IMG/VR virus record: IMGVR_UViG_3300045988_103368
Span: 1 to 30,137 of that record
DNA: 30,137 nt
Reading direction: 5' to 3' (one strand)
Source of the DNA: a virus
A model generated the notes under the pieces. It saw nothing but the letters and a program-made list of their open reading frames with translations. It was not told the DNA's origin and did not search any database. The position numbers and the translations under genes are program-made. Below, in pieces: positions 10,563 through 30,137 of this stretch. The stretch's first letter is position 1. Every line of letters begins with the position of its first letter.

Positions 10563-10908
10563 TTGGCAAAAACCCCTTTCGACAGCGGTACGGTTTTAAA
10601 CGTGATTCGTATTCTTTCAAAAATTCGTCGGTGTCGGTTGACGCTGACGACGTTTCAAATGATACGCTACGTTTATCCTCTGTAACAGACTTTATGACTT
10701 GCGGTGCGGCTGTTTGTCCGTACCCTTTTCGGCGGTACATTTCCGCCGCCATTTGAGGCACAAGACTTTGTAGTTTTGTCGGCACTTCGGCTGTGTGACA
10801 ATATGAATTTATTAGATTTTCCATATCATCAATCAAAAAAGACAACAAGTCGTCTTGCTCGTTGTCTTTTATTCCTAACAGCATTTTTGCTGTACTCAAA
10901 CTATCCAT
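10525..10908 (-). CDS. Head-tail connector (gp6-like, Phage_connect_1).
   Basis: Start moved to the ATG at 10908 (MDSLSTAKMLLGIKDNEQDDLLSFLIDDMENLINSY...), with an AAGAAAGAGGA SD. The basic N-terminal extension in the ORF track overlaps the previous gene. Confidence 0.8.
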   Translation of the reverse strand: MDSLSTAKMLLGIKDNEQDDLLSFLIDDMENLINSYCHTAEVPTKLQSLVPQMAAEMYRRKGYGQTAAPQVIKSVTEDKRSVSFETSSASTDTDEFLKEYESRLKPYRCRKGFLPSDISKRKLSEHI

Positions 10909-22983: not shown

Positions 22984-23000
22984 TTTTCCGCCTCCTATCG

Positions 23001-23141
23001 CTAAAATGTTACGGCTATATTTAAAACCGCCGCCGCAATCCAATACACTACTTTTCGCCCATCCCCCGTAATCGTGTACGGGATTGCTGACATCAGTTGT
23101 ATAACTATTAATGTCAGCGGTAATATTTTTTCTTTTGTCAT
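23001..23141 (-). CDS. Small hydrophobic peptide (46 aa, two predicted TM segments; not in the ORF track).
   Basis: ATG at 23141, 9 nt after GAGGGGG. MTKEKILPLTLIVIQLMSAIPYTITGDGRKVVYWIAAAVLNIAVTF. Fills an otherwise 160-nt gap. Confidence 0.45.
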   Translation of the reverse strand: MTKEKILPLTLIVIQLMSAIPYTITGDGRKVVYWIAAAVLNIAVTF

Positions 23142-23145
23142 AATT

Positions 23146-23718
23146 TTATACCCCCTCTATATCAACCTTTGTGCCGTCCTCGTATTCCAAAAATCGGACG
23201 GACCCGTCATATATAACCTCAAATTCGTCTATATCTTCGTGCAACAAGAACTTTTTGCCATAATATTTTTTCATATTGTCCCACGCCTCAAATGGAACGG
23301 TATAGAATTTTTCTTGGATATTGACCGCCACAAACACAACGGCACCCATTTTCTTTTGCTCACGCAGCCACTCCATTTGTGTATCTGTAACCGCATTTCT
23401 TTGAATGCGGCTTTTTTGAGTACTTTTTGCCTCAAATGCGATAGCTCTACCGCCTTTTAGCACTCCCTTGAAATCCGGCTCGGCTCTTCCTGTGAACCGC
23501 CCCATAAATTTGTTGCCGTTTGTTTTCTTGGTAACTATATATGGCTCATTCACCTTGTTGATGATTGCAATACCTTTTTGACGGTAGTAATTACAACCAC
23601 GCATCAACAGACTTTCAAATGCTCTGCCTCTTGCAGAACTCTTTTTATTTCTCAATACTTGTTCGCCGTCTGCATTTCTGTTTTCATCAATCAATGCTCT
23701 GTATTCTTCCGCTGTCAT
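23146..23718 (-). CDS. recU: RecU-type Holliday junction resolvase.
   Basis: GRAFESLLMRGCNYYRQKGIAIINKV and PDFKGVLKGGRAIAFEAKST (D...EAK nuclease core) match RecU. The start is uncertain (ATG 23718 or TTG 23754). Confidence 0.85.
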   Translation of the reverse strand: MTAEEYRALIDENRNADGEQVLRNKKSSARGRAFESLLMRGCNYYRQKGIAIINKVNEPYIVTKKTNGNKFMGRFTGRAEPDFKGVLKGGRAIAFEAKSTQKSRIQRNAVTDTQMEWLREQKKMGAVVFVAVNIQEKFYTVPFEAWDNMKKYYGKKFLLHEDIDEFEVIYDGSVRFLEYEDGTKVDIEGV

Positions 23719-23881
23719 TTTTTCCACTGCTTTGTCCTCGCTTTCTCTGTTCAATCTTGTTTAACATTGTACATTTTTCTAATGTTTTTATATCTTCCGC
23801 CGTTGCTCCGGGTGCGTTACCGCAGATCCGAATTATGCACGGTGTATCTTCATACTTGCACCCCTTACAGCCGTCATTCAT
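23687..23881 (-). CDS. Possible small Cys-rich protein (64 aa).
   Basis: ATG at 23881 follows the Rep stop by 2 nt, with an AGGCGGTG SD. MNDGCKGCKYEDTPCIIRICG.... The 3' end overlaps the recU start region by at least 32 nt, so it is doubtful. Confidence 0.3.
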   Translation of the reverse strand: MNDGCKGCKYEDTPCIIRICGNAPGATAEDIKTLEKCTMLNKIEQRKRGQSSGKNDSGRIQSID

Positions 23882-23883
23882 CT

Positions 23884-24579
23884 TTAACACCGCCTAACCA
23901 TAACGTACTCTTGGTACGGGTATCCGCTGAAATCGTGGAACCCGTCAAACCTATGTATTATTTCATAGTGTTTTTTTGCTCTCGGTGTGCTTGTCCACCT
24001 TTCGGCCTGTATTATTCTGTATCTGATTTTTGGTTTTTTCATATTTCGGCTACTTGTGAAATCTTTTTCAGATTTTTCACTGTCACCCTTGACGAAATAC
24101 ATTGCCAAATCATACATTGAATCAGTGTATATATTTTCTATATGCACCTTGCCGTGTTCCCACAGGCTGATAATGATACCTATGTCAAACACATTTTTGA
24201 TTATAAAATGATGATGTAACCCACCCTTGACACCGCGTTCGGTCATTGCCGTATAGGTCAGCGGTATATCCTTTTTCTTCAACTTATCCCGTAACCGCCT
24301 AATAAATCGGCTACGGTGTTTTTTTGCCACTGACATACTATCGGGACGTTCACACCGCCTGTACGTCAATGTTATCCACCAATCTGTCTTTTTGAAATTT
24401 GCACATATAGCCCATACAATTCTTTTTTTCTTTAATAATTCATTTCTGCGTCTTTGGACTTCTGTACATTCATTCCAATTCGGACCTCTTGGAATATTCT
24501 TTTTTCCGTATCTCGCTGAAAAACCTTTTTCTTTAAAAATGTGTTCTCCTGCGACGATTGTTTTCTCTATGTATGCCAT
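23884..24579 (-). CDS. HUH-superfamily rolling-circle replication initiator (Rep).
   Basis: Motif 1 WWITLTY, motif 2 GLHHHFII (HUH) and motif 3 YDLAMYFVKG (catalytic Tyr). Confidence 0.8.
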   Translation of the reverse strand: MAYIEKTIVAGEHIFKEKGFSARYGKKNIPRGPNWNECTEVQRRRNELLKKKRIVWAICANFKKTDWWITLTYRRCERPDSMSVAKKHRSRFIRRLRDKLKKKDIPLTYTAMTERGVKGGLHHHFIIKNVFDIGIIISLWEHGKVHIENIYTDSMYDLAMYFVKGDSEKSEKDFTSSRNMKKPKIRYRIIQAERWTSTPRAKKHYEIIHRFDGFHDFSGYPYQEYVMVRRC

Positions 24580-24632
24580 ATATCTTTTCTCTTTTTTTTC
24601 GTTCTAAATTTAATTACTTAAACAAGTTATAA

Positions 24633-24656
24633 AACCTTGAAAAATCAAGGTTTTTT
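24633..24656. terminator. Hairpin in the Rep leader (attenuator-like, bidirectional shape).
   Basis: AACCTTGA-AAAA-TCAAGGTT flanked by an A-run on one side and a T-run on the other. In the leftward sense it is followed by TTTTATAAC. Confidence 0.5.
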
Positions 24657-24682
24657 AAACTTTTTTGCTTGATTATTTTTTG

Positions 24683-24727
24683 ACTATATGGTATAATAGA
24701 TATGTGGGTATCTTTATACCATATAGT
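24683..24727. repeat. 45-nt near-perfect palindrome upstream of rep; candidate replication origin hairpin. Both arms also carry TGGTATAA(T/A).
   Basis: ACTATATGGTATAA(T)AGATA-TGTGGG-TATCTTTATACCATATAGT gives about 19 bp of stem with one bulge and a 6-nt loop. Confidence 0.8.
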
Positions 24728-24735
24728 ATTTATTG

Positions 24736-24771
24736 AAAAAATGGCGGTTCAGCATAACCGCTATTTTTTTT
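24736..24771. terminator. Bidirectional intrinsic terminator.
   Basis: GCGGTT-CAGCAT-AACCGC with A6 upstream and T8 downstream. Overlaps the stop of 24761-24967. Confidence 0.7.
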
Positions 24772-24967
24772 GTGCCAATTCATCAAATGTCATCTGCACT
24801 GTCTTGGGCGGTGGTGTTCGTGTTACAGGTTGTTTTGCCTGTCTGCACTTGCGGCAGATAAAGCCGCCTGTCGGGGTTACCGCCCCCACTATTTTGACAG
24901 GGTCAACGTCTGTCAAATACCACTGCCCGCAGACAGTACATTGACTGTTATATGTTTTTCTTCTCAT
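24761..24967 (-). CDS. Small zinc-ribbon protein (68 aa).
   Basis: CTVCG...CRKC pairs. The ATG overlaps the upstream stop (ATGA). Confidence 0.6.
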   Translation of the reverse strand: MRRKTYNSQCTVCGQWYLTDVDPVKIVGAVTPTGGFICRKCRQAKQPVTRTPPPKTVQMTFDELAQKK

Positions 24968-25200
24968 ATCGCCGACACTTTCTTCTTAAATAACGGCAAC
25001 ACTTTCTTGCTCTCTGCTCCGCTGTTGGGTTGATTTATCAGTGCAAGCACTTGGTCTGTTTCTCTAATAAATCTTTGTCGTGGACTTTCAATGTCCTTTC
25101 TATTTTTTTTATTACTGAGCAAATCGTCAAGCATTTGCAACGCCATATGCTGACCCTGTTCATTCAGTTGTTCTATTCGTTCTATGTATTTATCGTACAT
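24964..25200 (-). CDS. Hypothetical protein (78 aa).
   Basis: GGAGGA SD before the ATG at 25200. Confidence 0.6.
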   Translation of the reverse strand: MYDKYIERIEQLNEQGQHMALQMLDDLLSNKKNRKDIESPRQRFIRETDQVLALINQPNSGAESKKVLPLFKKKVSAI

Positions 25201-25211
25201 TATTTATCCTC

Positions 25212-25415
25212 CTATATTTTCTGCGTAGTTATAATGTAGTCAGCCGGATTTATATTATTTTTTATTAAAAAACTCAATACTGCATCTGTTTCCGACCGCC
25301 CTCTTACTTCTTCTTCGCATATGTATGTTTTTACTGGTAGTGGCTTTCTATATATTGCCTCTATCTTATACTTTTCTTTTTTTAATTGCTCTAATAATCG
25401 CTCTGTTACTGTCAT
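25212..25415 (-). CDS. Hypothetical protein (67 aa).
   Basis: AAGTAGGTG SD before the ATG at 25415. Confidence 0.55.
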   Translation of the reverse strand: MTVTERLLEQLKKEKYKIEAIYRKPLPVKTYICEEEVRGRSETDAVLSFLIKNNINPADYIITTQKI

Positions 25416-25422
25416 TTCGCAC

Positions 25423-25512
25423 CTACTTTCTTAATGCCATTGCTATAATGAACACTCCAAACATCATACCCATTAAATAAAATATACCTATATATGGGTC
25501 ACTGTTTTTCAT
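25423..25512 (-). CDS. Possible 29-aa hydrophobic peptide (not in the ORF track).
   Basis: ATG at 25512 after a GAAAGGAACG SD. MKNSDPYIGIFYLMGMMFGVFIIAMALRK. The stop lies within the SD of the next gene. Confidence 0.35.
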   Translation of the reverse strand: MKNSDPYIGIFYLMGMMFGVFIIAMALRK

Positions 25513-25535
25513 TTTTTATCGTTCCTTTCTTCAAC

Positions 25536-25629
25536 TCGCAGGCACATAGGAACCGCCCTATCAGATTTCATTAAAATTTCAAAATGTATTAAGGGGGGTA
25601 CTATTCGGGCGGTTCGTATCTGCCTGCGA
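25536..25629. repeat. Large inverted repeat (23-nt arms, 21/23 complementary, 48-nt spacer).
   Basis: TCGCAGGCACATAGGAACCGCCC (25536-25558) pairs with GGGCGGTTCGTATCTGCCTGCGA (25607-25629). GC-rich arms in an AT-rich context. Confidence 0.8.
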
Positions 25630-25640
25630 ACCTATTTTAA

Positions 25641-25790
25641 CTATGCTGTTTTGTCAAACAGATAATCATATTTCGGATTTATCTGTAATTCGTGTGCAAA
25701 ATCCGAAATATTTTTACCTGTTATAATCTTGCACATTTCGTCATTTGTCGGACTATGTGCATTAATATCTATTTCTATTCGGGTTTCCAT
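25641..25790 (-). CDS. 49-aa protein whose C-terminus resembles the C-terminal tail of the Cro-like HTH protein.
   Basis: ATG at 25790 with a GGAGAGGAGAG SD. ...ISDFAHELQINPKYDYLFDKTA compares with Cro ...ICSALNINPDYFKKTA. Confidence 0.5.
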   Translation of the reverse strand: METRIEIDINAHSPTNDEMCKIITGKNISDFAHELQINPKYDYLFDKTA

Positions 25791-25825
25791 TGTTTTCTCT
25801 CCTCTCCGCCTCACTATGTTCTCAT

Positions 25826-25854
25826 TTGTATTTTTTGTCATTTTGTGCTATAAT
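25826..25854 (+). promoter_or_regulatory. SigmaA promoter of rightward cassette A.
   Basis: TTGTAT, a 17-nt spacer, then TATAAT with TGC (extended -10). Confidence 0.6.
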
Positions 25855-25881
25855 CACCACAGAAAGCGAGGTGATCATATT

Positions 25882-26355
25882 ATGAGCGTTCCTGTCGAAG
25901 AACTAACTAAAAACGATTACAAAGTATTAGAATATATTAATCGTTTTACATCAGTCCACAAAAACGATATTGAAAAGCATTTAAATAACAGCATTACGTC
26001 CTTAGATTATGTCTTATCCAAATTGTCTAAAGTCGATTATAAATTAAATGGAGATGTCCCCTTTCCTATCGCAAATTCTAATTATATAGAAGAAGAATTT
26101 GACCGACCAACTAATGATTATGAAACCCCTCGCAAAAGTCTTAATATGTTTCATATTACTGATATTGGGAGAGATGTCTTACAGAATTATCACATAAAAC
26201 AACGAGTTGCAAAAAAGGAACTTTGGTTAAAAAATGCTTTAATACCTGTTATCGTGTCATTTGTAACAACAAACATAACAATGTACTTAATACCGAAGTT
26301 GCCGCTGATACTAAAATGGTTGTGCGATATTCTTTCCAAAATTTTTTCATCTTAG
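25882..26355 (+). CDS. Unknown 157-aa protein: N-terminal winged-helix-like region plus a C-terminal transmembrane anchor (cassette A).
   Basis: ATG at 25882 with a GAGGTGAT SD; the track N-terminus is an unsupported extension. KNDYKVLEYINRFTSVHKNDIEKHL... is wHTH-like. C-terminal ALIPVIVSFVTTNITMYLIPKLPLIL. Confidence 0.7.
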   Translation: MSVPVEELTKNDYKVLEYINRFTSVHKNDIEKHLNNSITSLDYVLSKLSKVDYKLNGDVPFPIANSNYIEEEFDRPTNDYETPRKSLNMFHITDIGRDVLQNYHIKQRVAKKELWLKNALIPVIVSFVTTNITMYLIPKLPLILKWLCDILSKIFSS

Positions 26356-26504
26356 CTATCCTTTCTACTGCGCTGAACTTTAGCTTGCTCTTGCAACCAT
26401 TCGCAAAAATTCTTTGCCGGATATGGTGCAAGATTAATCTTTCCGACAGTCATTTGCTGATTTGTTTCAATATCGGCAAATGGCTGTTTATTTTCTTCGC
26501 CCAT
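26352..26504 (-). CDS. Small 50-aa protein (not in the ORF track), convergent with cassette A.
   Basis: The ATG at 26504 is preceded by CGGAAAGGAAGTAGGAGA, identical to the leader of 26534-26701. The stop overlaps the cassette A stop (TTAG 26352-26355). Confidence 0.5.
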   Translation of the reverse strand: MGEENKQPFADIETNQQMTVGKINLAPYPAKNFCEWLQEQAKVQRSRKDS

Positions 26505-26533
26505 TCTCCTACTTCCTTTCCGACACTAACTGA

Positions 26534-26701
26534 CTAAAATTGATTTTGAAAGTCAGCGCACATTTTAAATACCTGTGGTGCATACTGTAGGTATTTTTCT
26601 TTGTCATCTTTTTCAATAGAATCATCATATCTCTTTAGTAGTTTGTATGACGTACGCAAAATATCTCGTGCGATGTCTTCTGTTGTTAAAACTTCTTCCA
26701 T
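26534..26701 (-). CDS. Small 55-aa acidic protein.
   Basis: ATG at 26701 (MEEVLTTEDIARDIL...) with an AGGAG SD. The upstream part of the track ORF is a remnant or leader. Confidence 0.55.
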   Translation of the reverse strand: MEEVLTTEDIARDILRTSYKLLKRYDDSIEKDDKEKYLQYAPQVFKMCADFQNQF

Positions 26702-26747
26702 TCTCCTACTTCCTTTCCGCCTCGTTAGGCTGTTTTCTGATTGTCTG

Positions 26748-26776
26748 TTGCGAATTTTGTCAATTAATGTTATAAT
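26748..26776 (+). promoter_or_regulatory. SigmaA promoter of rightward cassette B.
   Basis: TTGCGA, a 17-nt spacer, then TATAAT with TGT (extended -10). Confidence 0.65.
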
Positions 26777-26802
26777 CAACTCGTAGAAAGGGGGTGATTA
26801 TA

Positions 26803-27363
26803 ATGATTTTAGATTCACAATCAGAGGCAATCTTAAAATACATAATAGACCTTGACAAATTACAACCTAGCACTTGGTTTGAATCAGAAACTATATGTGC
26901 TGCTTTCTCTACTATAAATCCAGACATTTTTATTGACATTATTAAAAATCTTTATACTAACAGCTATATTGATGCTTTACTCTCTGATACTGGTATAAGC
27001 GACATTCAGTTATTACACAAAGGTCGAGTTTATTTTGAAACAAAGGCTATGGAACTTGCAAAACAACAGCCACAAAATGTAACAATTAATAACTCTTCTA
27101 ATTTTAATGTTGGTAATGGCAATAACATTAATGTCACAACAGGCATTACTGCCGATTATGCGATTAAACTTATAGAGCAAAGCACTATGAACGACAAAGA
27201 GGCTATGAAAGAAATTATTACTCTGCTAAATGATGCTATTGTTAATAATAAACCACTCAAAGCAAGTAAATTCAGCAAAGTTCTTTCTCACATATCTTCT
27301 TTAGCTCCTCTTATTCAAATGATTGGTGGTATAGTTGTTTCTGCAATGCAAGGACACGATTAA
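26803..27363 (+). CDS. Unknown 186-aa protein: N-terminal winged-helix-like region, Asn-rich middle and a C-terminal hydrophobic segment (cassette B).
   Basis: ATG at 26803 with an AAAGGGGGTGA SD. SEAILKYIIDLDKL... (YjcQ-like wHTH impression). NSSNFNVGNGNNINV. C-terminal SSLAPLIQMIGGIVVSAM. Confidence 0.7.
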   Translation: MILDSQSEAILKYIIDLDKLQPSTWFESETICAAFSTINPDIFIDIIKNLYTNSYIDALLSDTGISDIQLLHKGRVYFETKAMELAKQQPQNVTINNSSNFNVGNGNNINVTTGITADYAIKLIEQSTMNDKEAMKEIITLLNDAIVNNKPLKASKFSKVLSHISSLAPLIQMIGGIVVSAMQGHD

Positions 27364-27569
27364 TTTTCCATACCGATTATCGACTTTATAATGCTTTCTG
27401 AATCGTCTTGAAAAAGATTTTTCAATGCATTGTCGTACATATCTCTTATGTTTTTACAAACTGTCTCTAACTCGTCAAACTCATTGATTTGTCTGTTACT
27501 GTCGAGTATAAGAGACAGTTTTATTTTGTCACCATTTTTTAGTTGACGTTCGATTGTTGCTGTTCGCAT
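27360..27569 (-). CDS. Hypothetical 69-aa protein, second gene of the early leftward operon, convergent with cassette B.
   Basis: ATG at 27569 after GGAAAGGAATGAGGA. The stop overlaps the cassette B stop (TTAA 27360-27363). Confidence 0.6.
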   Translation of the reverse strand: MRTATIERQLKNGDKIKLSLILDSNRQINEFDELETVCKNIRDMYDNALKNLFQDDSESIIKSIIGMEN

Positions 27570-27592
27570 TTTTCCTCATTCCTTTCCGCCGC

Positions 27593-27805
27593 TTAAGCTG
27601 TTTTCTTGAAATAGTCCGGATTAATATTTAACGCAGAACATATTTCAAGAAATTCATCAGCCATTATTTTTCTTTTTCCTTGCAAGATTTTTGAAATTAT
27701 ATCTGCCGAAATTCCTGTTGCCTGTGATATGTATATCTGCTTTATTCCTTTTGCCGTCACATACTGATTTAATTTTTCATTAATATACATTTTTGTAGAT
27801 TTCAT
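27593..27805 (-). CDS. Cro-like XRE-family HTH regulator.
   Basis: ATG at 27805 with an AGAGGTGG SD. ...YVTAKGIKQIYISQATGISADIISKILQGKRK is an XRE HTH. First gene downstream of the leftward consensus promoter. Confidence 0.8.
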   Translation of the reverse strand: MKSTKMYINEKLNQYVTAKGIKQIYISQATGISADIISKILQGKRKIMADEFLEICSALNINPDYFKKTA

Positions 27806-27826
27806 TTTTACCACCTCTTTTCTTTG

Positions 27827-27915
27827 TCTACATTTTGTAGATTGTAATTGTATTATAATCTACTTTTTGTAGGTTGTCAAGTGTTTTTTTTATATTTCTA
27901 TCTACTTTTTGTAGA
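27827..27915. promoter_or_regulatory. Three palindromic operators of the lysis-lysogeny switch.
   Basis: TCTACATTTTGTAGA (27827-27841), TCTACTTTTTGTAGG (27859-27873) and TCTACTTTTTGTAGA (27901-27915). A degenerate fourth copy lies at 27786-27799, inside the cro start. Confidence 0.75.
27852..27880 (-). promoter_or_regulatory. Early lytic promoter (leftward).
   Basis: Minus-strand TTGACA (27880-27875), a 17-nt spacer, then TATAAT (27857-27852). The middle operator fills the spacer. Confidence 0.75.
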
Positions 27916-27923
27916 TTTTTGTA

Positions 27924-27952
27924 TTGACTTTAAATATTTATAGTGGTATAAT
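27924..27952 (+). promoter_or_regulatory. Repressor (maintenance) promoter.
   Basis: TTGACT, a 17-nt spacer, then TATAAT with TGG (extended -10). Operator 27901-27915 lies 8 nt upstream of the -35. Confidence 0.7.
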
Positions 27953-27973
27953 TGCAACAAGAACTGAAAGAGG

Positions 27974-28354
27974 GTGATTAAAATTTCAAGGGAATATATA
28001 GCATTGACTTTAAAAAGATTGCGTGAGAAATCCGGTTTAACAACTTCGCAAGTTGGGGAATTATTGGGTAAAAGTGGTAAGACGGTTAATGCTTGGGAAC
28101 ACAATCACGGTCAGCCTGATGCTGAAATGCTTATGAAATTATGTGATATATATAATGTTAAAGATATTCTTGCAGAATTTCGTGAAAATAAACGTGAAGA
28201 TATTACGAATCTATCAGATGAAGAAATATATTTGATAAAGTCATACAGGAATTTATCTGAACAAGGTCAAGAATATATATTACAAACCATAGATATTGTC
28301 AAAGACAAATATAAAAAAGATTTATATTCTTCCGATTCACAAAAAATAGGTTGA
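27974..28354 (+). CDS. CI-like XRE-family repressor without a peptidase domain.
   Basis: LKRLREKSGLTTSQVGELLGKSGKTVNAWEHNHGQP is an XRE HTH. No S24 Ser/Lys domain is seen. The start is ambiguous: GTG 27974 abuts the SD, while ATT 27983 aligns with the ATGs of the two paralogous leaders, and TTG 28004 is also possible. Confidence 0.8.
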   Translation: MIKISREYIALTLKRLREKSGLTTSQVGELLGKSGKTVNAWEHNHGQPDAEMLMKLCDIYNVKDILAEFRENKREDITNLSDEEIYLIKSYRNLSEQGQEYILQTIDIVKDKYKKDLYSSDSQKIG

Positions 28355-28358
28355 AAAT

Positions 28359-28392
28359 AAAAAAAATCCCCGACCGCTACTAACAGTCGGGG
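28359..28392 (-). terminator. Intrinsic terminator oriented leftward, between the repressor and integrase genes.
   Basis: CCCCGAC-N11-GTCGGGG with A8 on the plus-strand 5' side (T8 on the minus strand). No T-run follows it on the plus strand. Confidence 0.65.
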
Positions 28393-28402
28393 AAATAGTG
28401 TA

Positions 28403-28448
28403 GTGTTATGGTACACCAATTAAAAACATATATATTGTACCATAACAC
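28403..28448. repeat. 13-bp inverted repeat upstream of the integrase gene.
   Basis: GTGTTATGGTACA-N20-TGTACCATAACAC. Each arm is followed by CC(A/G)ATTAAAAA. Confidence 0.75.
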
Positions 28449-28481
28449 CGATTAAAAATCAAGTTAAGAGGTGTTATTTTT

Positions 28482-29935
28482 ATGAACAAAAAAATTAATG
28501 CAGTCGGATATGCACGATATAGTACAGAATTTCAAACAGATAACAGTATAGCCTATCAAACAACGGCCATACAAGAATACTGTGAAAAACACGATATAAA
28601 TTTGCTGAAAGTGTATTCCGATGAGGCTATGACCGGAACAAACACAAACCGACCTGCATTCCAACAAATGCTTGCCGCCGCTGAACAACATCTTTTTGAC
28701 GCGGTAATCATCTACGATATTTCACGCGGCAGTAGAAACGTCGTTGATTGGTTTTCATTTAGACAAGAAATGGCACGCATAGATATACAGGTTATATCGT
28801 GCAATCAACATTTAGGTGACATTTTAGACCCGAATACATATCTAACAGAATTAATAACCGCCGGAATAGGTCAACATATGGTTTTGGACACACGAAAAAA
28901 ATCTATAGACGGCAAAAATGAACGGGCAAAAAAAGGTATTTTTTGCGGTGGAAACCCGCCATTAGGATATGACATTAATGACGGTAACTATATCATAAAC
29001 CCAAAAGAGGCTAAAATCGTCCAAACTATTTTTACTATGTATGCTGACGGACATTCATATAATGAAATTTTAAAAGAATTAGACGGAGCAGTTGGCAAGG
29101 CAGGTCGCCCATTAGGAAAAAATTCGTTATATTCTATTTTGAAAAATGAACGATACATAGGTGTTTATACGTGGAATAAACGAAAAATCAAAATTATGGG
29201 TAAATGGGCAGGCGGTAGACCTAATCCCGATATTGTCCGCATTGAAAATGCAATCCCACCAATTATAGATGAAACCATTTGGAGAAAGGTTGAAGAAAGA
29301 ATGAAAGATAATTCAAGACGTGCAACGTCAAAGTCCTGCAGACACAATTATTTGTTGTCCGGTTTAATACAATGTGATAAATGTGGTGCTACATTTGTAG
29401 GTCATACGTCAACTAATCAAAAAAAAATCAGTACACCGTACTATATTTGCGGTAACAAATACCGCACGCACACCTGTTGTACAAAAAATATAAATGCTGA
29501 TAGATTGGAAACATTTGTAGTAATGCAAATAAAACACTATTTAAAAACCGCAGATTTTGAAACATTGGCTGATGAAATTTGCAAGCAGGTTAATTCCGCC
29601 GCACCGGACGTGTCAGCAGAGAAAAAGGAATTATCTGAAATCGAAACAAAAATAACCAACGGTATAAATGCCATTTTAGGCGGTGTTAATATTCCCGAAC
29701 TAAAAGATGAAGTTGATAAGCTACGCATTCGTAAAAGTGAGTTAGAGGACGTCATTACGTACAAAGAAAAAAATAAAACACGCACATTAAACCGTGATAA
29801 ATTAGTTGAAATGCTAAAAGAATCAGCAGAAAACATTGATTCCACTGATTCTAACACATTGATACGCAATTTTGTAACAAAAATATACGCCCACGCAGAC
29901 GGAACAGTGACCGTAAACTTGGGCGTACATATTAA

Positions 29936-29957
<22 letters not shown>
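28482..29957 (+). CDS. Large serine recombinase (integrase).
   Basis: The N-terminal resolvase domain AVGYARYSTEFQ carries the catalytic Ser. It is followed by a recombinase domain, a Zn ribbon (CDKCGATF...YYICGNKYRTHTC) and a C-terminal coiled coil. AAGAGGTG SD. Confidence 0.93.
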
Positions 29958-30011
<54 letters not shown>

Positions 30012-30047
30012 ATATTTAACTTAGCGCCTCTCTCAGAGTGCTATAAT

Positions 30048-30076
30048 AGTATAGCACACCCTAACTTATTTGTCAA
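30048..30076 (-). promoter_or_regulatory. Promoter of the tRNA gene.
   Basis: Minus-strand TTGACA (30076-30071), a 17-nt spacer containing TGC, then TATACT (30053-30048). An A-rich UP-like tract lies upstream. Confidence 0.65.
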
Positions 30077-30137
30077 GTGTTTTTTTATAATTTTTACATT
30101 TTTATTTTTTAAACCTCAATACTATTGTTTTTATCCG

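Follow-up and report, generated by a model that had tools for sequence, protein, structure and literature searches.

Why would a temperate phage carry, inside its early lytic operon, two genes that run in the opposite direction, with the repressor and the integrase? The question is raised by a virus record of 30,137 nucleotides (nt) (IMG/VR IMGVR_UViG_3300045988_103368, positions 1 to 30,137; this whole stretch is hereafter called the window), which is a temperate siphovirus-like prophage whose host belongs to the low-GC Clostridia. Toward its right end two plus-strand genes, here named A and B, interrupt the minus-strand early operon between a cro-like gene and a Rep gene (Table 1). We favor, with moderate confidence, the explanation that A and B belong to two accessory modules, independent of each other, which the lysogen expresses and which are of the kind known as noncontiguous operons, that they probably serve defense or exclusion, and that each is faced by an antagonist encoded on the lytic strand.

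Accessory genes with promoters of their own

The initial annotation of this region described two paralogous rightward cassettes, each with its own promoter and each convergent with a small leftward open reading frame (ORF). The basic anatomy is as it was described: both genes begin with ATG, at 25882 and 26803, and the overlapping stop codons, TTAG at 26352-26355 for A and the small ORF a', and TTAA at 27360-27363 for B and the small ORF b', are exact. Convergence of A and B with early lytic transcription, also part of that description, is borne out, and no convincing intrinsic terminator was found between the convergent genes or after A or B, where a weak hairpin at 26567-26596 was the only candidate.

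Table 1. Genes, promoters and other elements of the window, with positions counted from its first nucleotide (aa, amino acids)
Feature	Position	Strand	Description
Gene A	25882-26355	+	ATG 25882, 157 aa; phrog_12206, function unknown
Gene B	26803-27363	+	ATG 26803, 186 aa; phrog_21028, function unknown
RHIM-like motif of B	27079-27144	+	residues 93-114, VTINNSSNFNVGNGNNINVTTG
asA	26249-26350	-	unannotated; 33-aa peptide MKKFWKEYRTTILVSAATSVLSTLLCLLLQMTR with a single transmembrane segment; wholly antisense to the codons of the A tail
b'	27360-27569	-	69 aa; directly follows cro in the early operon
a'	26352-26504	-	50 aa; early-operon backbone gene; stop overlaps that of A
P_A	25826-25854	+	-35 TTGTAT, 17-nt spacer, extended -10 TGcTATAAT; read from sequence
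P_B	26748-26776	+	TTGCGA-17-TATAAT plus TG; promoter scan 10/12
cro-like HTH_3 gene	27593-27814	-	Pfam HTH_3, 5.5e-8; heads leftward early operon
Repressor (HTH_3)	27974-28354	+	Pfam HTH_3, 1.5e-10; start codon uncertain
Switch region	27827-27952		three TCTACwTTTTGTAGA operators (27827, 27859, 27901) and two promoters
Leftward consensus promoter	27880-27852	-	in switch region
Rightward repressor promoter	27924-27952	+	in switch region
Large serine recombinase	28482-29957	+	ends in tRNA-Met
HUH Rep gene	23884-24579	-	PF23343 REP_ORF2-G2P, phrog_3584; leftward early operon extends to it
50-aa early gene METRIE...	25641-25793	-	divergent from P_A; next leftward gene past the A block
55-aa early-operon gene MEEVLTTED...	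26534-26701	-	leader CCATTCTCCTACTTCCTTTCCG; also in L001 and L030

A consensus scan of the region returned 24 promoter-like sites, as against 18.6 in shuffled sequences, so that a single consensus match means little; we therefore compared the regions upstream of homologous genes. Of 30 non-redundant regions upstream of A and B homologues, GC-rich hosts included, 29 contain the sequence TGnTAnnnT 25-35 nt before the start codon, followed by a Shine-Dalgarno (SD) sequence, and every B homologue that lies behind another promoter block elsewhere also has an extended -10. The claim that each gene possesses a promoter of its own rests, therefore, on conservation and not on one consensus match. In the window the scanner finds P_B; P_A fails its -35 rule (3/6) but has an extended -10. 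No site resembling the repressor operators was found near P_A or P_B; control of these promoters by the repressor through additional operators was accordingly rejected, in agreement with the earlier description of lysogeny-strand genes behind constitutive-looking promoters.

The promoter-leader blocks of A, B and the repressor do align, as had been pointed out, with 29 invariant columns that comprise the -35 TTG, TGnTATAAT and AGAAAGG.GGTGAT. The last element is an extended SD sequence, complementary to the 3' end of 16S rRNA, and the blocks therefore share a signal but not necessarily descent; what had looked like kinship is similarity to promoter and ribosome-binding consensus. The P_A block itself (about 25823-25881) is another matter. 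An exact search with its 30-nt core, TGCTATAATCACCAyAGAAAGCGAGGTGAT, showed that the block recurs almost unchanged in related phages (loci carry the prefix L) before at least five different cargo ORFs: A (the window and L032), a B homologue (L001-6 and L031), a DUF6173 gene (L001/2), a 68-aa cysteine-rich ORF (L029), and the gene for a winged-helix protein that is like A but has another transmembrane (TM) tail (L030/33). The promoter block of the window's B differs from this cassette. The promoter and leader repeats look like joints for the exchange of cargo. At 11221-11250 of L030 a seemingly orphan P_A cassette is directed into a 90-aa leftward gene, antisense to it.

Judging by sequence comparison, A and B do not belong to copies of one unit. 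Neither A and B nor a' and b' can be aligned by BLASTP, A and B fall into different PHROGs, and hhalign relates them (79% probability, 14% identity) over the N-terminal winged helices alone, which leaves only remote winged-helix homology between them. Paralogy, as originally proposed, was thus rejected for A and B and likewise for a' and b'. A natural chimera at 5830-6189 of L028, in which a B-type winged helix is fused to an A-type TM tail and an asA-like antisense ORF is kept, indicates that the A and B families exchange modules.

In Oscillibacter, Flintibacter, Agathobaculum and uncultured Clostridia, about 25 distinct loci carry an A-family gene, which runs in the direction of repressor and integrase at a distance of 0-4 genes from cro. 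This synteny is independent of integrase type (serine or tyrosine) and of replication module (Rep, DnaB or DnaB_2). The commonest order is A> cro< rep> int>, and relatives of B occupy the same slot in the order B> b'< cro< rep>. More distant B relatives are represented by L053, which came from one metagenome scan; scans of viral contigs with P0047 and P0061 gave none. The two genes come and go separately. Locus L001 carries B and the DUF6173 gene without A, beside cro and repressor DNA that reads the same as that of the window, and L032 carries an A that is 100% identical beside a repressor that is 45% identical, and lacks B. In L030 only a tail-coding remnant of A is left (10650-10809), with asA and a' intact. 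On this comparative evidence A and B are accessory genes, independent of each other, and not parts of the core switch. In L016 (5171-7689), Abi_alpha and SIR2_2 genes lie on the lysogeny strand beyond the repressor, and these defense-type domains indicate that the lysogeny strand is used for defense cargo.

Small genes on the lytic strand opposite A and B

A search of all loci for ORFs convergent with A brought to light asA, which lies entirely within the antisense of the A tail. It begins (TAAgATG) straight after a', with the SD sequence AGAAAGGA 8 nt upstream. A homologous ORF with an ATG start, M(K/R)xFWKEYxxTI(L/V)VSAxxSV..., was found in 21 of 23 non-redundant A tails; when the A tail was recoded synonymously using local codon usage, the ORF was expected to be open in 1.5 of 21. 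An SD sequence precedes asA in 15 of 17 loci and lies outside the A coding region, and both the ORF and its SD persist in GC-rich hosts. The constraint is visible in A as well: the entropy of third codon positions falls from 1.6-1.7 outside the overlap to 1.02 within it, and two conserved A residues in the overlap have an invariant third base, again including the GC-rich hosts. The tested loci share ancestry, so that any combined probability is overstated, but the direction is clear. The homologues are 27-47 aa long, with a basic N-terminus and a single TM segment. The exact asA sequence is absent from a collection of 15 billion proteins and has, therefore, never been called as a gene.

The conserved partner of A is thus asA and not a'. 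The initial annotation had assigned a' to A as its small convergent partner and had missed the embedded gene. In L001, however, a' faces the DUF6173 gene; a' was thus rejected as the functional partner of A, and the notion that one unit occurs twice falls with it. In two loci (L046, 5323-5493, and L030, 12097-12237, both on the minus strand) longer small ORFs are convergent with A-like genes and carry TM tails like that of A itself (GVWIPILVSSATT...) or another TM segment, which suggests, as far as these sequences go, that the partner evolves together with the A tail.

One alternative for A and asA is a type I toxin-antitoxin-like pair, in which asA would encode a small membrane toxin and the A mRNA, through its 3' portion, would act as a convergent antisense RNA, so as to stabilize the prophage or kill derepressed cells. 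Convergent, 3'-overlapping layouts are typical of the type I systems of Firmicutes prophages, for example txpA/ratA and bsrG/SR4. The layout of asA is like theirs, and a peptide so short, with its basic N-terminus, its single TM segment and its full overlap by a convergent transcript, would fit the part of the toxin. On the other hand, asA has no recognizable promoter and follows either a' or cro in the early operon, so that the repressor already silences it. Moreover, the overlapping RNA encodes a conserved protein whose amino acid sequence is itself under selection, and the B module, whose small gene b' does not encode a hydrophobic product, would be left unexplained. We consider this alternative quite unlikely.

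For B, the partner proposed at the outset holds. Homologues of b' with 91, 41-43, 31-33 and 30% identity are convergent with B in L001, L050, L047 and L052, and in these four contexts they overlap the 3' end of B by 4-51 nt. In L053, where the identity of B is down to about 30%, the corresponding position is taken by a convergent ORF that overlaps B by 51 nt and whose likeness to b' was judged by eye. The homology of b' holds while B drops to 56-61% identity. By its recurrence, then, b' is the conserved convergent partner of B, and the search for a conserved convergent pair in other prophages yielded B with b' and, in the place of A with a', A with asA. In the window, in L047 and apparently in L053, b' directly follows cro, so that firing of the lytic promoter would lead to its immediate production.

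Could all of this be without special function? A and B would then be ordinary hitch-hiking genes, and phage DNA, being compact and AT-rich, would yield overlaps and antisense ORFs as a by-product. The early regions of phages are mosaics with many small ORFs, and the promoter-like sites counted above barely exceed those in shuffled sequences (24 versus 18.6). Such an account would have to accommodate an asA reading frame and SD sequence that survive in GC-rich hosts far above the synonymous-recoding null, a b' that co-varies with B across five contexts, a promoter whose position is conserved, and a synteny with cro, repressor and integrase that holds across unrelated phage backbones. These conservation tests contradict it, and we regard it as very improbable.

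Predicted products and a RHIM-like motif in B

The AlphaFold2 model of A (predicted local distance difference test score, pLDDT, 83.5) consists of a PadR/MarR-like winged helix, a long helix that leads into a TM segment (residues about 118-137) and, beyond a PKLP turn, an amphipathic helix at the terminus, and its top Foldseek matches are PadR/MarR proteins (probability 1.0). With a Kyte-Doolittle KD19 value of at least 1.6 taken as the threshold for a TM segment and 30 members analyzed per family, A scores 1.86, and 26 of 30 members of its family pass. The TM tail of A is real and highly conserved. Indeed the tail, with the consensus ELWLKNAWIPIIVSFVTTxxTxYIxPKLPxILKW, is the most conserved part of the protein among 30 relatives, whereas the winged helix is variable (majority fraction 0.64 versus 0.39) and spans charges from -8 to +9, that of the window's A being -5. 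The only tblastn match of A among phages, a weak one, was Orf40 of Lactococcus phage PLgT-1 (L009, 3995-4345). This protein of 116 aa, a winged helix that ends in a hydrophobic, TM-like tail, is encoded antisense inside the early operon of a cultured phage of Lactococcus garvieae, is annotated as 'winged helix-turn-helix domain-containing protein' and nothing more, and could give an experimental entry point.

Protein B comprises an acidic winged helix (residues 1-85), an N/G-rich motif, a helical domain (NNKPL..SKFSK) and a hydrophobic or amphipathic C-terminal helix. Its AlphaFold2 model has a pLDDT of 66.8 (about 80 for the N-terminal domain, whose Foldseek matches are MarR, YodB and PadR with probability 1.0). 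The family has 79 representatives among 1.84 billion proteins, and the architecture is common to the family; tblastn of B against phages gave nothing. The winged helix is negatively charged in 29 of 30 members. The C-terminal helix reaches a KD19 of at least 1.6 in 9 of 30 members, the window's B included, and by sequence is an amphipathic helix in most relatives. Thus, of the common architecture ascribed to the two products, the winged helices are supported for both by AlphaFold2 and Foldseek, and the TM segment for A rather than for B.

Neither protein family had been recognized in the initial annotation, and the searches agree. Pfam, NCBIfam and PADLOC, run on six small proteins and on both 30-member alignments, assigned no family (PADLOC gave one weak match, E 3e-4, over a winged-helix stretch), and no characterized family emerged from PHROG searches either. 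What remains is the resemblance of A (a winged helix and one long C-terminal helix) and of the N-terminal domain of B to PadR subfamily-2 and MarR proteins, in which a winged helix is joined to a dimerizing C-terminal helix, the Foldseek matches being 3hhh, LmrR, MarR and YodB (probability 1.0, E 4e-3 to 1e-1). Unlike those proteins, A and B pass no Pfam or NCBIfam model, the long helix of A runs into a TM segment, the domain of B is acidic, and neither has an evident DNA target. The acidic or variable charge of the winged helices makes classical DNA binding doubtful, for B especially.

These properties bear on the possibility that A, B or both regulate the lysis-lysogeny switch. They might do so by binding phage DNA or a switch protein with a winged helix that is tethered to the membrane; alternatively, their promoters, in the manner of lambda P_RE, might drive antisense transcription across cro toward the repressor gene. 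The PadR/MarR-like fold is in keeping with such a role, as is the constant place beside cro and the repressor (directly upstream of the latter, on the same strand, in L013-15, L021 and L026), and no terminator was found between A/B and the cro/repressor region. However, the same cro/repressor pair does without A in L001 and an identical A accompanies a different repressor in L032, so that A is not linked to immunity type; the cassettes lack operator-like sites; and the part of A that is best conserved is the membrane tail and not the winged helix, which in the window's A, as in nearly all B proteins, is negatively charged. The earlier suggestion of membrane-tethered regulators is weakened correspondingly, and regulation of the switch seems to us rather unlikely.

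The N/G-rich motif of B (VTINNSSNFNVGNGNNINVTTG) contains G104, the most conserved glycine of the family. A profile of the motif built from 14 relatives, searched against all PDB sequences, matched only RHIM chains of RIPK3 and RIPK1 (E 0.0046-0.0065), the match aligning NIYNCSGVQVGDNNY and TIFNSSGIQIGNHNY; with the reversed profile as a control, the best match had an E of 0.46 and unrelated proteins were returned. The motif, I-x-N-S-S-(G/N)-phi-N-phi-G-N-N-N, aligns with the core of the RIPK1/RIPK3 RHIM, which is grouped with the fungal PP and bacterial BASS3 amyloid signaling motifs. In B, the product of a prophage gene, it stands beside a helical domain whose terminal helix is hydrophobic. 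There are also differences. The core of the B motif is (G/N)-phi-N-phi-G, with N in the place of the Q of the RHIM core, G-phi-Q-phi-G. The Pfam RHIM model gave a weak match (E 0.17) to 2 of the 14 members, and a profile from the distant half of the B family gave no RHIM match. At the motif the AlphaFold2 pLDDT is about 50. RHIM-like motifs of the BASS3 type have been reported only from multicellular bacteria, at protein termini and in adjacent gene pairs, and the Bab/Agp pair of an Escherichia coli prophage is an amyloid-signaled abortive-infection system (bioRxiv 10.1101/2020.01.06.895854; 10.1101/2024.11.07.622273). The motif of B, by contrast, is central and belongs to a protein of Clostridia, and a six-frame hidden Markov model scan of the window and all loci for a second RHIM-like protein matched B homologues only. 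Since both the pairing and the position depart from the BASS3 pattern, the resemblance may be taken as a lead, not as a classification, and B as a candidate amyloid protein.

If the lead were followed to its end, B might be an effector of abortive infection, in prophages of gut Clostridia, that acts as a single protein and is switched by amyloid formation. Its acidic winged helix would be the sensor and, joined to a self-templating RHIM-like motif and a membrane-targeting helical domain, would reproduce the logic of ZBP1-RIPK3-MLKL in miniature, with the early lytic protein b' as the restraint, and A/asA would be a dual-coded pair in which the two strands of one 100-nt stretch encode the tail of a membrane effector and the small membrane peptide that neutralizes it. 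We present this as a speculative and unlikely extension of the explanation that we favor.

The surrounding switch and the proposed role of A and B

The switch at the right end of the window is lambda-like (Table 1). The repressor GTG start as listed (27974) falls within the gene's own SD sequence, GAGGGTGAT (27970-27985), and the sole in-frame codon at normal spacing is ATT at 27983; a rare ATT start or a leaderless-type arrangement is possible. A tRNA-Met gene (29936-30011, minus strand) overlaps the 3' end of the plus-strand serine recombinase gene by 22 nt, and this overlap is probably the attachment-site junction. Rfam, run on 23000-30137, matched the tRNA only, and megablast of 23800-28500 against INPHARED phages gave no match.

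The leftward genes cro, b', the 55-aa ORF, a', asA and METRIE are co-directional, with short gaps, repeated leaders and no terminator between them, from which we infer that they are co-transcribed as one operon. The leader CCATTCTCCTACTTCCTTTCCG is repeated before leftward genes (repeat families D1/D3). A leftward leader or junction repeat, TTCTCCTACTTCCTTTCCGcc..., stands before three early genes (26504-26531, 26701-26728 and 27570-27597), and part of it, TTAGGCTGTTTTCT, recurs as the 3' end of cro; this repeat may be a recombination joint for module exchange. Between two early genes, at 25424-25512 on the minus strand, lies a hydrophobic 29-aa ORF, MKNSDPYIGIFYLMGMMFGVFIIAMALRK, with the SD sequence GAAAGGA, which fell under the threshold of the ORF list and has a weak PHROG match only (phrog_38462, E 0.036). 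An intergenic gap of the operon contains a 23-nt inverted repeat (25536-25558/25607-25629; 91% complementary, 48-nt loop) without an Rfam match, the right arm of which also scores as a terminator-like hairpin on the plus strand (25611-25632). This inverted repeat may act as a terminator, as a site of processing or as part of a replication origin for the HUH Rep. The latter, of rolling-circle type, is the replication gene of this tailed temperate phage, and in relatives (L001) RecU and PcfJ/DUF3102 genes lie near it.

The closest precedent for the arrangement is Staphylococcus aureus phage 80alpha, in which a noncontiguous operon contains a nested antisense gene with its own promoter, the transcription states being mutually exclusive and coupled to lysogeny or lysis, with reciprocal switching of antisense genes in both the lysogeny and the lytic operons; ith, a small overlapping antisense gene, switches off the prophage defense protein Tha and so avoids autoimmunity; and the early lytic region holds antisense genes (orf11, orf17/19) that flip on induction (PMC11087260). 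Two hallmarks of a noncontiguous operon, a co-directional run of genes and nested antisense genes with promoters of their own, are found here. As with Tha and Ith, a larger lysogeny-strand gene is paired with a small overlapping gene of the opposite strand that is conserved with it (b' with B, asA with A). The proteins have no sequence or domain relation: Tha is a HEPN RNase, A and B are winged helices with membrane-type C-termini, and no HEPN-domain effector homologous to Tha was matched by Pfam, PADLOC or PHROG. The layout is also turned around. In 80alpha the nested gene is the small one, under a promoter of its own, and the defense gene is part of the cI operon; in the window it is the large genes that lie nested, within a lytic operon that includes their small partners. 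Furthermore, asA, a predicted gene, is wholly embedded in A, a case of dual coding and not of mere overlap.

Morons, which are independent promoter-gene-terminator units expressed from a prophage (PMC3594210), resemble A and B in having their own promoter, in their variable presence among close relatives, in their location between backbone genes and in expected lysogen expression. They differ in that no terminator was found for A and B, which moreover show no GC contrast with the switch genes, are antisense to an operon, and each have a conserved lytic-strand partner, and in that one promoter-leader block is common to different cargo. A further parallel is provided by lactococcal Sie2009 and Streptococcus thermophilus Ltp, small membrane-anchored superinfection-exclusion proteins of Gram-positive temperate phages, expressed from the lysogeny strand beside the repressor, Ltp using helix-turn-helix-like repeats. 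No homology of A or B to them was detected, and the Sie2009 and Ltp genes lie between repressor and integrase, have no overlapping antisense partner, and encode an N-terminal or lipid anchor with the soluble part outside.

What the sequences show is the layout, with its conserved promoters and partners, its synteny and portability, and the folds predicted for the products. Beyond that we infer expression of A and B in the lysogen, transcriptional interference, antagonism and a role in defense, in the following manner. Each module would consist of an extended -10 promoter with a strong SD leader, a gene for a winged helix with a membrane-active C-terminus and, across the 3' end of that gene, a small gene on the lytic strand. 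With the leftward promoter closed by the repressor, the lysogen would make A and B but not asA and b'. Upon induction or infection, strong leftward transcription would meet A and B head-on, and the collision, through interference and the pairing of sense and antisense RNA, would silence them; the same transcription would yield b' and asA, which would act as antagonists that neutralize B and A, respectively. A and B themselves would provide prophage defense or exclusion, the variable winged helix acting as sensor and the C-terminus as membrane effector or anchor. The precedent of 80alpha makes both the defense or exclusion idea and the interference idea reasonable.

Several points weigh against this proposal. 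Membrane association of B is doubtful outside a close subgroup, and asA could be merely an early membrane protein with a role of its own. Neither asA nor b' has a known inhibitor fold, and sequence searches detected no homology of A or B to known defense proteins. The compared loci are related, so that the counts given above overstate their independence. Nor does GC content mark the cassettes as foreign: values of 0.31 for A and 0.32 for B, next to 0.29 for cro and 0.30 for the repressor, make GC contrast uninformative as a sign of foreign origin.

For each of A, B, a' and b', at least 1000 public contigs carry the exact sequence, annotated as hypothetical only; together they form, therefore, a common prophage module of human-gut type. 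The architecture is a known one, found here with two uncharacterized and very abundant gut-prophage families, one hidden dual-coded gene and one possible amyloid-type motif. If our explanation is correct, the antisense design of Tha and Ith, on in lysogeny and off in lysis, would reach the Clostridia with two new protein families, a shared promoter-leader cassette would serve to plug different cargo into the same slot, and asA would be a clean case of a conserved gene that is hidden antisense in another gene and goes unreported by gene callers. Should the RHIM-like motif be confirmed, amyloid-type immune signaling would extend to unicellular Firmicutes and their phages.

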